Below, piece after piece: positions 40,561 through 46,560 of a stretch of 64,000 bases of DNA (its first letter is position 1; each line of letters opens with the position of its first letter). The notes under the pieces were generated by a model. It had not been told where the DNA came from. It searched no databases and saw only the letters and a program-made list of their open reading frames with translations. The position numbers were made by a program, and so were the translations under genes. Location of the stretch: the sequence record MZ234015.1; one strand, given 5' to 3'. The DNA comes from Escherichia phage vB_EcoP-101114BS3.

Positions 40561-40690
40561 CGGATGTTCGAGGATTATTCCTCTCCCTAGCATCGGCCCC
40601 ATACGGGAAAGATTAAATTAAGTTTAGGTTAGTTGAGCCAGAATAGCTCACATAGCCCTCTGATACTCACAAGGGCTATAGATGTTACTC
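40561..40690 (-). repeat. Conserved ~125-bp 3'-flank module with 8-bp-stem hairpin (copy 1)
   Basis: CGGATGTT..CCCTAG....CTCACATAGCCCTCTGATA.CACAAGGGCTATA.GATGTTACT shared with 46211-46332; ATAGCCCT/AGGGCTAT stem starts right after the stop of 40685-40933. Confidence 0.6.
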
Positions 40691-40933
40691 TGTGGCTCCG
40701 TCGAATCGGAGGATTGCTGCTGGAACAGGGTATGCTTCCAGATCTTCATCCAGTCGGTATAGATGCCCTGTACTTAAATTTACAGCTGTTACTGGCTTAG
40801 AGTGGCCTCCAGCCTGTATGGAAGGAACTCTGATAAAGAACTCTTCTGGATATTCAACAGAGTGGAACACACTTCCTGAATAAAGATCTTTTATTTTAGA
40901 AGTTTGTTTAGGAGTTTTATCAGCAATTTTCAT
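40685..40933 (-). CDS. Small protein, paralog family B (1 of 4)
   Basis: N-terminal L..GD.F-type motif and overall pattern shared with 42324-42578, 45139-45390, 46330-46560. Confidence 0.55.
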   Translation of the reverse strand: MKIADKTPKQTSKIKDLYSGSVFHSVEYPEEFFIRVPSIQAGGHSKPVTAVNLSTGHLYRLDEDLEAYPVPAAILRFDGATE

Positions 40934-41166
40934 TACAGACCTTTCTTAGCACGATCTTTGGCAGTTTTGCCAGTGCGGATACGATGGGAAACATTAACCA
41001 GCTCGCCACCTTCGACGATGGTTACGCTTTTGTTTTTCGCAATATCAAACACAGTTTTCTCTGTGCCGCCCAGACGAATCTGTTTAGGCTCACTGTGGGT
41101 CTGAGTTGATTTAGACTGGAACTGGAACGGCTGACGGATGGCATCAATTGCGCTAACTTTAGACAT
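40933..41166 (-). CDS. Hypothetical basic protein
   Basis: 77-aa ORF. Confidence 0.45.
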   Translation of the reverse strand: MSKVSAIDAIRQPFQFQSKSTQTHSEPKQIRLGGTEKTVFDIAKNKSVTIVEGGELVNVSHRIRTGKTAKDRAKKGL

Positions 41167-41194
41167 GTTTTTATTACCTTACATTAAAGAGAGA

Positions 41195-41608
41195 TTAAAC
41201 AACGAATTGGAACGCTTCGTATCCAAACTTGTATAAGAAATCGTGTTTGAACTTTACTACACGACCACGATCGCGGAAAGCTTTCAGGCGACTGCTGAAC
41301 CCAACCATTGGCTCAGGGTCAATAGGGCTACGAATCTTCATAGCTACAGAGTGCAGCTTGAAGCGTTTACCAGTGCTACAGGCCATCATCACATACTCCA
41401 TACGAGTAGTCCAGATGTTGAGCACCATGCTTGTTTTCTCCGCTGACCAACCAGTCTTGCGGGCGATTTCTTTATGGACATTAAGCTCCAAAGGAAGAGG
41501 GAATTGCTTGTTGAATGAAGCCGGATATAGCTTGACCAGAAGGTCAATGTTTTCTTTATACGTTAAGTAAGCCAATTTCTTGCTTACGTTAGGGAATTTC
41601 CCAGACAT
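41195..41608 (-). CDS. Hypothetical protein
   Basis: 137-aa ORF; conserved block with terminator-like hairpin lies upstream (41642-41689). Confidence 0.55.
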   Translation of the reverse strand: MSGKFPNVSKKLAYLTYKENIDLLVKLYPASFNKQFPLPLELNVHKEIARKTGWSAEKTSMVLNIWTTRMEYVMMACSTGKRFKLHSVAMKIRSPIDPEPMVGFSSRLKAFRDRGRVVKFKHDFLYKFGYEAFQFVV

Positions 41609-41806
41609 TTTTGAAGCTCCAAAACAGCGCCGAAAAGAGAGGCGTCATAGTAGCTAAAAGGAGGAGAGAAGAGGGCTTATTTACTTGCCTTTTTCTGTCC
41701 GTTAATGTACCAGATAACTGAACCGTCAGGCTGTCGTTGACCGAAGCCTTTCAAGTTAACCATTTCTTCTTCAGAGTAGGCACGTTTTCTCACTGATTTT
41801 CTCCTG

Positions 41807-42064
41807 TCAGTAGAAGGTGTGTGTAGAGTCGTCGTTCATAGATAACCAAACGAAGAAGACAATCACACAGAAAGCAATAATACCGAGAGTTGCAAGGATT
41901 ATAGTGTTAGCTAATGTGATATCTAACACGCTTTGCAGATATATAAAGAACTGTACGACACCACATACCATCAGCACAACCCCAACGACAATGAGGAGCC
42001 AATATGTGCAGAGAAGGACTGCATCTAATAGTGATACATACTTTGGATGATCTTTATGTCTCAC
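41807..42064 (-). CDS. Small membrane protein (2-3 TM)
   Basis: Hydrophobic segments LLCTYWLLIVVGVVLMVCGVV and IILATLGIIAFCVIVFFVWL. Confidence 0.45.
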   Translation of the reverse strand: MRHKDHPKYVSLLDAVLLCTYWLLIVVGVVLMVCGVVQFFIYLQSVLDITLANTIILATLGIIAFCVIVFFVWLSMNDDSTHTFY

Positions 42065-42320
42065 TGATCTTTTCCACTAAATCCAGAGTTGCTGATTCAA
42101 ATACAACACCAACTACCATATTAGGTGCCATATTACGAACGTATCCGCTCTGCATAGACACGGCCCGAGAGTATTCAGAACCGTTAGAACTTTTGTTTAC
42201 CTTCATGTAAAGGGTTTGCTCTTTATCTTCTTTCAGAGTAAAGAAAGAGCCGGGAAGAAGCCTCTGAACAGTCAGAGGGATATCTGCAACATGAGTCTTA
42301 TTGATAGTAAGAACTGTCAT
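42054..42320 (-). CDS. Hypothetical protein
   Basis: 88-aa ORF. Confidence 0.45.
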   Translation of the reverse strand: MTVLTINKTHVADIPLTVQRLLPGSFFTLKEDKEQTLYMKVNKSSNGSEYSRAVSMQSGYVRNMAPNMVVGVVFESATLDLVEKISET

Positions 42321-42323
42321 TGC

Positions 42324-42578
42324 TTATTCCTTAATAGTTGCTTCAGCTTTAATAGGAATAACAGCAACATCTTTACGAGGTGCTGTCGCTCGACCTGTGT
42401 TAAGGCAGGCTACAAGTCTATGCTCGTCCGCACCCTTGATGCAGAGTCGAGTTGAGAACTCAGTAGACAGCAAGATGTACAAATCATCATCTTCACTGTT
42501 AGGGTACATGAAGCAATCCCCAAGTCGTAAAGCACTGAGAGGTATTGCACTCTTACCTGCTGGTTTATTAACTTTCAT
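42324..42578 (-). CDS. Small protein, paralog family B (2 of 4)
   Basis: LSALRLGDCFMYPNSEDDDLYILL aligns with the other family B members. Confidence 0.5.
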   Translation of the reverse strand: MKVNKPAGKSAIPLSALRLGDCFMYPNSEDDDLYILLSTEFSTRLCIKGADEHRLVACLNTGRATAPRKDVAVIPIKAEATIKE

Positions 42579-42854
42579 TTTACCACCTTTAGTTATGGAC
42601 CAATTTATGAGAGAACTCTCGGAAGAATGCTTTCATAAATAGGGGGAGGGGACGAATCCTCCCATATCCTATTAATTAATATTGCATGTAAGATCTAACA
42701 ATTCGATGCTGTAGTGGATAGCGTAAAACGCTTACCGGCATTAAACCCAGCCCATGAGGGGCTTATGTGAATAAAATGCTCAACATTGAGCGGTTAGTTG
42801 ATAGGAGATCTGAAGTCCTATCTCAAAGGACTCTCGTAAGAATCCTTCACGATA

Positions 42855-45142: not shown

Positions 45143-45390
45143 GGCGCTTTAATCTCAATCTGAACGTTGACGACGAATACAGTATGGTTTGCACTGTACA
45201 CTGAAGTGCCTATGATTGGCTTATCATCACTGAGGATTTCAACAGCGTGCTCAAGGTTAATCTTCAGATGAAGACGCCCTGATTCCATGAAGAAATCACC
45301 AGCACGTATCTCACCGAACTTAGCTGGCACACCGATAGAGGGTATCAGTATGTCAGTGCGACCTTTACGGTCAAATAAACGATTGAACAT
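45139..45390 (-). CDS. Small protein, paralog family B (3 of 4)
   Basis: FGEIRAGDFFMESGRLHLKI aligns with the other family B members. Confidence 0.5.
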   Translation of the reverse strand: MFNRLFDRKGRTDILIPSIGVPAKFGEIRAGDFFMESGRLHLKINLEHAVEILSDDKPIIGTSVYSANHTVFVVNVQIEIKAP

Positions 45391-45399
45391 ATCACCCCC

Positions 45400-45609
45400 T
45401 TATGTAATATCAACCTCAAACCAACAGGTAAGAGCTTTTTCATTGTTGCGTTTTGGCTCAAAGGATTTAACAACCGATAACACTCGGCGCTGTTCTCCAT
45501 CAAACCAGATAGTTTCATCTTTTTCAGGGAGTAGGTTGTGTGCAGCACAAACAATCTCACCTAGTACAACCTGTCTGCCATCTTGCTTACGAACTAAACG
45601 AATGTTCAT
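45400..45609 (-). CDS. Hypothetical protein
   Basis: Internal Met start chosen; the longer ORF-track version would run through the upstream terminator. Confidence 0.4.
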   Translation of the reverse strand: MNIRLVRKQDGRQVVLGEIVCAAHNLLPEKDETIWFDGEQRRVLSVVKSFEPKRNNEKALTCWFEVDIT

Positions 45610-45650
45610 AACAACCTCTCTTGTTAGTTTAAGTAAGAGTTGTCCCTTAA

Positions 45651-45686
45651 TTAAAACAACAAAGGCCACCCCTAAGGGCAGCCTCT
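45651..45686 (-). terminator. Rho-independent terminator
   Basis: Minus-sense GCUGCCC-UUAG-GGGUGGC (7 bp with two G.U) followed by a U-rich run, after the stop of 45690-45905. Confidence 0.5.
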
Positions 45687-45689
45687 TAT

Positions 45690-45905
45690 TTAAGCGCAAG
45701 CACTACGCAGTTTGTTATTCAAGAAGCGATCTTCTGCATTATACAGGAATGCATAGAACAACTCTTTTGCTACATCCCGATCGCAATTGAGACATTTAGA
45801 GATCTGTAACAACAAACCATCACGACTATTAGGATGGTCAATTATCGCAAGACGAATAATCTCACGAATACCAATGTCATGCTCAGCCGCCATAGAACCA
45901 ATCAC
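45690..45905 (-). CDS. Hypothetical protein
   Basis: 71-aa ORF. Confidence 0.45.
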   Translation of the reverse strand: MIGSMAAEHDIGIREIIRLAIIDHPNSRDGLLLQISKCLNCDRDVAKELFYAFLYNAEDRFLNNKLRSACA

Positions 45906-46210
45906 CCTGACGTTTACGAATGTTAGTTGTCAGACGAAGCATGGCAGACTCAATCTTCAGAGCACCATTTGCTACTGCATCCATACGTTCAGGACGGTTC
46001 ATACGTTTGGTTGTCTTTTTCATAATGTTCTCTCTTTATTGATGGAGGCAGGATTGCCAGTTAATATAAAGGGAAGCCCTACACGTTAAGACTTCCGCTT
46101 GTACAAACTGTCGAGAACTCTCTACCCCTAGATTGTTCTCTATCCCAAACCGATACATACCCCTACATATCGGAAAGCTGTTCGAAAATTAACAGGTTTT
46201 AGTCTATCAC

Positions 46211-46332
46211 CGGATGTTTGAGACAAGTCTCGCCCTAGCGGTGAGCCATATGGCGTTGAGATTATAGTTAATTGAGGAACACCCTCACATAGCCCTCTGA
46301 TAAACACAAGGGCTATAAGTCGATGTTACTTA
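46211..46332 (-). repeat. Conserved 3'-flank module with hairpin (copy 2)
   Basis: Same module as 40561-40690, positioned directly after the stop of 46330-46560. Confidence 0.6.
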
Positions 46333-46560
46333 ACCATTAATATGAGTTACTTGAACATCAGGTACAGGGATAACTTCATGGTCTTCCTGTAATTGGAACA
46401 GTGTCCCCTGACTAAGACCAACCACACGATGCATATCGTTAAGTCTAGTGTCTGTCTTTAGGTAGACATTTTCAGAGTTAGTTGGTAAACGGAACACATC
46501 GCCCGGACGTAACTCACTGAGCTTTTTAGTAACAACTACAGAGAAGAGATTAATTTTCAT
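46330..46560 (-). CDS. Small protein, paralog family B (4 of 4)
   Basis: LSELRPGDVFRLPTNSENVYLK...VIPVP aligns with the family. Confidence 0.55.
   Translation of the reverse strand: MKINLFSVVVTKKLSELRPGDVFRLPTNSENVYLKTDTRLNDMHRVVGLSQGTLFQLQEDHEVIPVPDVQVTHING

Follow-up and report, generated by a model that had tools for sequence, protein, structure and literature searches.

Antitermination by RNA alone is, to our knowledge, very rare, being limited to put and to EAR in Bacillus. The put RNAs bind the zinc-binding domain of the beta' subunit of RNA polymerase, and the nut site of phage lambda, which consists of boxA and then a boxB hairpin whose pentaloop is GNRA-like, is an RNA read by the N protein. 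The phages phiEco32 and 7-11 are models for the takeover of host RNA polymerase by a sigma factor. In HK022, two related cis-acting put RNAs of ~70 nucleotides (nt), one per early operon, render the polymerase terminator-resistant (PMC9378689). For phiEco32 and 7-11 it is a recognized open question how early transcripts get past terminators to distant genes, the phage sigma gene among them (PMC8948821). In 7-11, Lavysh et al. (2022) validated early promoters at the right end of the genome only; they concluded that read-through must get to the sigma gene and that an antitermination strategy "remains to be defined" (PMC8948821). Here we report that two noncoding flanks in the early region of Escherichia phage vB_EcoP-101114BS3 (sequence record MZ234015.1) are paralogous copies of a structured RNA of ~135 nt carried on leftward early transcripts. 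The whole stretch of DNA analyzed, 64 kb in length and called the window below, comes from a Suseptimavirus of the Gordonclarkvirinae, a phiEco32-like C3 podophage, and the 6.4-kb region studied matches Escherichia phage vB_EcoP-101114UKE3 (MZ234017) at 100% identity. All genes of this region lie on the minus strand, in a leftward early cluster of small open reading frames (ORFs) around a tRNA-Arg gene.

Two copies of a four-helix RNA

An earlier reading of this region, made from the sequence alone (the sequence-only reading), had described near-identical modules of ~125 bp with a common hairpin behind two small genes, ORFs 40685 and 46330. The hairpin, ATAGCCCT-12 nt-AGGGCTAT, is indeed found at 40652-40679 and 46289-46316, the word CGGATGTT lies at 40561 and 46211, and both modules begin at or beside the stop codons of the two ORFs; a 33-nt pattern of the hairpin occurs exactly twice in the window, as against no occurrence in 100 shuffles. 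The modules as a whole are not near-identical. A structure-guided alignment gave 79 identical positions of 123 (64%) plus 31 gap positions, and the 94% identity between the copies is confined to the 34-bp hairpin block (P1).

On the minus strand both copies fold alike. Over ~135 nt the order of elements is a 5' AGUAAC, usually with the stop codon of the upstream gene, P1 (AUAGCC...GGCUAU), P2 (GAG...CUC), an A/U-rich single-stranded linker, P3 (a stem of 3 bp and a (G/A)UAU loop) and P4, in which a symmetric 7x7 internal loop, CUAGGG(A/C)/(G/A)AACAUC, separates a 6-bp outer stem from an inner GAG...CUC stem. Copy A (40547..40689, minus strand) was recovered with covariance model R1 at 145 bits (E value 2e-33) and is also supported by its fold, by covariation and by its orthologues. 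Its AGUAAC contains the stop codon of ORF 40685, and its helices are P1 at 40652-40679, P2 at 40635-40649 and, beyond the linker, P3 at 40598-40607 and P4 at 40557-40596 (outer stem CCGAUG/CGUCGG, internal loop CUAGGGA/GAACAUC, inner stem GAGGA/UCCUC). Copy B (46197..46330, minus strand), supported by model R1 (120 bits, E value 4e-27), fold and orthologues, has its P1 at 46289-46316 and a P4 made up of UCACCG/CGGUGA, the loop CUAGGGC/AAACAUC and GAGA/UCUC. Searching the window with R1 returned exactly these two copies. Between them, both sides have changed in three of the six pairs of the P4 outer stem, and the linker sequence differs.

Covariation was counted against two controls, one in which the pairing partners were displaced (slid) and one in which the alignment was shuffled. 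In a MAFFT alignment of 22 sequences, 96.6% of the cells pair, compared with 34-48% with slid partners, and double changes were found in 10 of the 26 pairs (0-3 when slid). A broader alignment, which is biased towards the structure since it was fitted to the structure model, showed compensatory changes in 17 of 26 pairs (0-5 slid, 8.4 +/- 1.3 shuffled). Four of the six pairs of the P4 outer stem have compensatory changes, and the letters of the P4 internal loop are invariant across Kuravirus, Suseptimavirus, the 7-11-like phages and L050, a 48.7-kb Citrovirus-like contig binned with a Flavobacterium metagenome-assembled genome. This contig has one distant homologue (63 bits) that alters all helices, with new sequences throughout P1, P2 and the P4 outer stem, and leaves the internal loop, the P3 loop and the inner GAG/CUC stem unchanged. 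Compensatory substitutions are thus found in independent lineages, as is expected of a conserved structured RNA. G·U pairs are frequent in P1, P2 and both P4 stems on the minus (mRNA-sense) strand only; because these would be A·C mismatches on the opposite strand, we assign the structure to the mRNA-sense strand. The earlier suggestion that noncoding 3' sequence conserved at this level implies function has stood up, on firmer grounds than the sequence-only reading had, in that a covarying multi-helix structure is common to both flanks and is conserved across genera while neighboring proteins are ~40% identical.

Further pairings are predicted around this core. RNAalifold, run on nine A- and 7-11-type and nine B-type flanks, proposed a helix P0 in which the 5' AGUAAC/AACAYC segment pairs with the nucleotides right after GUGAG; P0 is supported in the B type by one compensatory change and competes with P2. 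In the A type a closing helix, UAACCU/AGGUUA, adjoins UCUUA/UAAGA, and the latter covaries with UCUUU/AAAGA in 7-11-like phages. The AGGUUA strand is the 5' part of GGUUAUCCACAG, which holds a DnaA box. In copy A this is AGGUUAUCCACA (40527..40538, minus strand), with the DnaA-box 9-mer inside, whose 5' half is predicted to pair with UAACCU at 40626-40631, closing P3 and P4. Copy B has a 3' extension of its own (46072..46196, minus strand), supported by RNAalifold on nine phages, motif clustering and a terminator scan, with two covarying hairpins whose loops are UA-GGGG-UA (46150-46173 and 46113-46140) and a weak terminator-like hairpin at 46072-46096. UAGGG is present four times over 46081-46237, within 160 nt, and these sites include the P4 loop of copy B, at 46237, and the distal hairpin.

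Distribution, age and independence from the upstream gene

The module is conserved in more than 100 phages, comprising phiEco32-like, 7-11-like and some CVT22-like phages. Related genomes keep both flanks, each copy having orthologues at 83-100% identity in ~100 Gordonclarkvirinae records (98 for copy B), phiEco32 included. Between Suseptimavirus and Kuravirus the modules share 83-90% nucleotide identity, and the protein of 405 amino acids (aa) encoded just downstream of the module shares 40-45% aa identity. The Salmonella 7-11-like phages (Moazamivirus) have a single copy, and pattern scans together with model R1 located additional Kuravirus- and 7-11-like contigs in viral and metagenome collections. 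Weaker homologues were found in Klebsiella phage KpnP_VR7901 (37 bits) and in Citrobacter phage CVT22 (25-31 bits), where the internal loop is not conserved, and a model search of fetched stretches with filters off gave no significant match in Erwinia Pecta. A few G+C-rich matches from pattern scans of IMG/VR, metagenomes and genomes (L006, L014, L025, L036 and others) contain only the P4 core and were set aside as chance. A blastn search against 5,426 E. coli genomes gave no module match, and the element is therefore not a mimic of a host RNA.

At the gathering threshold Rfam 15 reports only the tRNA-Arg in the window, and ARAGORN ruled out that the modules are tRNA-like. The published genome papers on SU10, SU7 and 7-11 make no mention of the element, and a literature search returned no paper linking phiEco32 with a structured RNA. 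Irrespective of its function, the element constitutes a new RNA family that neither Rfam nor phage annotation contains. GenBank records now cover the element with short coding sequences (CDSs): 101114UKE3_095 (40648-40749) and 101114UKE3_118 (46140-46307), both on the minus strand, overlap the modules, are unconserved in relatives and are probably spurious gene calls.

The very recent duplication that had been offered as one explanation of the two flanks is refuted. Because the copies are 64% identical and each has separate orthologous conservation in ~100 phages, the duplication is ancient and both copies have been selected. In Kuravirus the P1 of copy A is capped by UUCG, and in Suseptimavirus it has a B-type look, so that the local near-identity of P1 in the source phage suggests either patchy gene conversion or retention of an ancestral loop. 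Nor are the modules tied to the two protein genes. The ORF upstream ends in the UAA of the conserved 5' AGUAAC in almost all genomes, yet in SU10 copy A follows the gene of a 155-aa membrane protein, and LAMP has homologues of other genes in front of both copies. The module persists where its upstream gene has been exchanged or lost, as in these two phages, and is independent of that gene. The co-occurrence of module and small protein gene in the source phage may go back to an old duplication in which gene and RNA were copied as one unit, which we propose because ORFs 40685 and 46330 are reciprocal best matches; the association is not obligatory. A more local event is seen in Kuravirus EcoN5 (contig L018), where a tandem duplication of ~1.5 kb, which also includes homologues of gp89-gp92, has produced a third, identical A-type module (770-903 and 2288-2421).

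A family of small SH3-like proteins and other features of the region

The sequence-only reading had also grouped four ORFs, beginning at 40685, 42324, 45139 and 46330, into a family, and all four are present on the minus strand. Three of them, member A (40685..40933, 82 aa), member B (42324..42578, 84 aa) and member D (46330..46560, 76 aa), which acts as the hub of the family, are clearly related. The fourth, member C (45139..45390, 83 aa), is only a distant relative, and a fifth, member E (42054..42320, minus strand, 88 aa), had been overlooked. By sequence, then, the window is taken to hold five family members, one of them distant. The protein similarity is significant, with BLASTP E values of 1.6e-5 for ORF 40685 against ORF 46330 and 1e-3 for ORF 42324 against ORF 46330. 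Members A, B, D and E cross-match the same set of PHROG families of unknown function (6570, 7431, 7832, 12612 and 16423; phrog_12612 and cross-hits in the case of member E), with E values from 1e-14 to 1e-29, and hhalign against a 60-sequence profile placed these four at 98-99% probability (98.3% for member E), while the top score among the other 94 small minus-strand ORFs was 1.9%. ORF 45139 reached 68% alone and 94.6% (E value 6.7e-8) when profile was compared with profile; it has no BLAST or PHROG link to the other members, and its AlphaFold model (predicted local distance difference test score, pLDDT, of 40) is too poor for confirmation of the fold.

A profile of four members matched 132 representative clusters of 70-90-aa proteins in a library of 1.8 billion proteins, a word-index search found close relatives only, and Pfam has no family for any member. 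The predicted fold is a small SH3-like beta-barrel of five strands. As SH3-like/KOW/Tudor barrels, the family models resemble the C-domain of ribosomal protein L2, domain I of EF-P, the KOW domain of Spt5, CarD and the C-terminal domain of UvrD. Kuraviruses have at least six paralogues of the family in the same region. One protein of the representative library (P0017, 1397 aa) has nine stretches matched to the domain, and the ~80-aa fold therefore also exists as a tandem repeat. Directly upstream of member D lies a 58-aa ORF (46557-46733, minus strand) with a VGD motif and weak matches to small beta-barrel domains, for which family membership was undetectable. Contig L050 encodes at least four small paralogous proteins between its positions 1978 and 4396, with C-termini in ...EENE and a KGD/IGD-hydrophobic motif near the N terminus.

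Some other features of the window were seen in passing. A degenerate second tRNA-Arg(tct)-like sequence (43820-43885, minus strand) lies just downstream of the genuine tRNA-Arg (43941-44016); ARAGORN reports it only at a reduced threshold, and the stretch is missing in phage SU7. The third long noncoding gap of the cluster (42579-42854) has two terminator-like hairpins and a promoter-like site, and no copy of the RNA module. GC skew changes sign at ~10 kb and ~54 kb of the window, tracking gene orientation. Position 40400 of the window corresponds to 61947 of the 75,747-bp GenBank record; window coordinates exceed the end of that record, and the window therefore spans the genome ends.

Transcriptional setting and possible function

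Each copy closes a short series of small early genes. A terminator-like hairpin comes 70-130 nt after it, and same-strand genes continue beyond each such hairpin. The conserved hairpin P1 had itself been suggested as a possible terminator. This did not hold: P1 is followed by GUGAGCUAUUC with no U-tract, the terminator-like hairpins are those further downstream, and the terminator scan gave calls at 40488-40471 and 46096-46072 and none at P1. The intrinsic terminator after copy A (40462..40488, minus strand) consists of GGCUCUCUUAGGAGAGUCC followed by U6, with the ribosome-binding site and ATG (40443) of the next gene directly afterwards. Its stem is conserved, with a covarying loop-proximal pair in Kuravirus and the 7-11-like phages, and copy A and the 7-11-type copy alike have a conserved hairpin and U6, a strong terminator, ~70 nt downstream. 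A scan for sigma-70 promoters found no promoter-like site between the module and the next gene or in either flank, and the phage-sigma motif TAATGTATA is absent from the flanks. In SU7 a promoter has been annotated in front of the 42324 homologue; because it overlaps the ribosome-binding site and start codon, it was not used.

We tentatively favor the possibility that the element is a cis-acting RNA that, like put or nut, governs whether transcription stops or reads through. It would act in cis on the transcribing host RNA polymerase, either directly, in the style of HK022 putL and putR, or through a phage protein that would read the invariant loop, in the style of lambda nutR-tR1, and early transcription would then pass the terminator and reach the downstream genes. 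The predicted P0, in which the stop-codon segment pairs with the 5' half of P2, could couple folding to translation of the upstream ORF. The element may in this way be the missing antitermination signal of these phages. A fuller version of the proposal is doubtful, namely that the element represents a new class of phage transcription-control RNA, a put-like processive antiterminator of ~135 nt, possibly gated by translation of the upstream ORF via P0/P2 and maybe read by one of the adjacent KOW/Tudor-like small proteins, and that it would be the undefined mechanism by which, in sigma-factor-encoding podophages (phiEco32, 7-11 and some CVT22-like phages), host-polymerase transcription that starts at a few early promoters passes terminators and reaches the phage's own sigma gene.

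Several points weigh against antitermination. In 7-11 a distance of ~19 kb separates the element from the early promoters, and a constitutive antiterminator beside a terminator would require additional regulatory input. Downstream of copy B and of the Citrovirus-type copies, the only terminator-like hairpins are weak ones with interrupted U-tracts. At roughly double the length of put, the element also differs from it in architecture, and no sequence relation to HK022 put or to nut was recognised, no direct sequence comparison with put having been made. Cronobacter GAP52, Proteus 3H10_20 and Aeromonas BUCT695 gave no significant match when fetched stretches were searched with the model and filters off. 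At E <= 10 over 40400-46400, no Rfam match overlapped either module core; one weak match nearby, STnc100 (40460-40560, E 0.22), extends over the stretch of the copy-A terminator and only 4 nt of the 3' edge of P4.

It is unlikely, in our judgment, that the module instead serves RNA processing or stability, as it would if RNase III or RNase E cut or bound P4 or the whole module, separating early mRNAs and leaving a protective 3' structure. The position of the element between genes or operons of a polycistronic early transcript would fit such a role, as would a hairpin with a conserved internal loop and the irrelevance of the identity of the upstream gene. RNase III processing sites, however, comprise about two helical turns of mostly paired RNA, and P4, with ~11 pairs (Watson-Crick or G·U) plus the 7x7 loop, or ~18 stacked positions counting the loop, seems short for that enzyme; four helices and loop letters invariant across families would also be unneeded at a simple processing site. 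In such a role the module would resemble the early RNase III sites of T7 and lambda sib: all have a helix broken by a conserved internal loop and lie between early genes or beside a terminator, whereas the paired region of the phage element is shorter and the helices P1-P3 are extra.

We regard as similarly improbable a trans-acting RNA of ~230-300 nt, made up of the released module and its extension, that would titrate a host or phage protein via its UAGGG(G) loops or base-pair with targets via the A/U-rich linker. Of the 17 UAGGG motifs in 44 kb of minus strand, copy-B RNA has four, three of which lie in loops; at its end copy A has a hairpin and U6 after A/U-rich sequence, in the fashion of Hfq-type small RNAs; and the RNA is large and multi-domain. 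Against this, the promoter scan found no promoter of its own, the linker is not the same in the two copies, the E. coli genomes offer no host homologue to mimic, and the motif is unlike the GGA consensus of CsrA. The sponge RNAs CsrB and RsmZ likewise repeat a short G-rich motif in several hairpin loops, as copy B does, but their motif is A(N)GGA and not UAGGG(G), copy B has only 3-4 sites, and the free RNA species is putative.

Since covariation alone does not separate RNA from single-stranded DNA, a DNA-level element was also considered, a single-strand initiation or origin-type signal with hairpins in single-stranded DNA and, at copy A, DnaA bound to TTATCCACA. The only perfect DnaA-box 9-mer in the window is at 40527-40535 (minus strand), 12 nt after the copy-A module and 21 nt after P4, and it is kept in the A-type and 7-11-type flanks of Kuravirus and 7-11-like phages. 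However, neither copy B nor any Citrovirus-type copy has such a box, and at copy A the 5' half of the box is predicted to be paired in the RNA beside a covarying helix. The many conserved G·U pairs favor RNA, and GC skew is featureless here and follows gene orientation only; a DNA-level signal would appear to be very unlikely. It is scarcely credible, and the comparative data already contradict it, that the modules have no RNA function and are either neutral leftovers of a recent duplication of gene plus flank or short peptide ORFs (CDSs 095 and 118). In favor are the 94% identity of the hairpin block in the two copies and the ORFs annotated over both modules, but overall identity is 64% with each copy orthologously conserved, stem changes are compensatory, the annotated ORFs are unconserved across phages, and indel lengths not divisible by three (for example, +2 nt in the P1 of KBNP1711) are evidence against the short CDSs.

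For the question of early transcription in these phages, a delimited RNA element with covariation support is now available, and since its invariant internal loop can be mutated the question is directly testable. If antitermination by the element were true, it would be a third, unrelated class of RNA-only antiterminator, of relevance to the fields of transcription and RNA structure. Under this antitermination reading the closest systems are put and nut. HK022 put has ~70 nt and two stem-loops and lies just after the promoter, whereas the phage element has ~135 nt and four helices and ends short gene runs. The two resemble each other in having two sequence-related copies per genome on early transcripts, multiple stems with bulges and internal loops upstream of terminators, and no need for a dedicated gene (PMC9378689). 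Compared with lambda nutR-tR1, the phage element is much larger and no N-like protein was identified; inspection by eye, with no pattern search run, found neither boxA (CGCUCUUUA-like) nor a boxB pentaloop hairpin in either module, and the only boxA-like string, the near-match GCUCUCUUA, is the copy-A terminator stem. The layout is nevertheless similar to that of lambda, with one or more promoter-proximal small genes, an RNA element, an intrinsic terminator and more early genes in turn, and a short invariant RNA feature could be the binding site of a protein.

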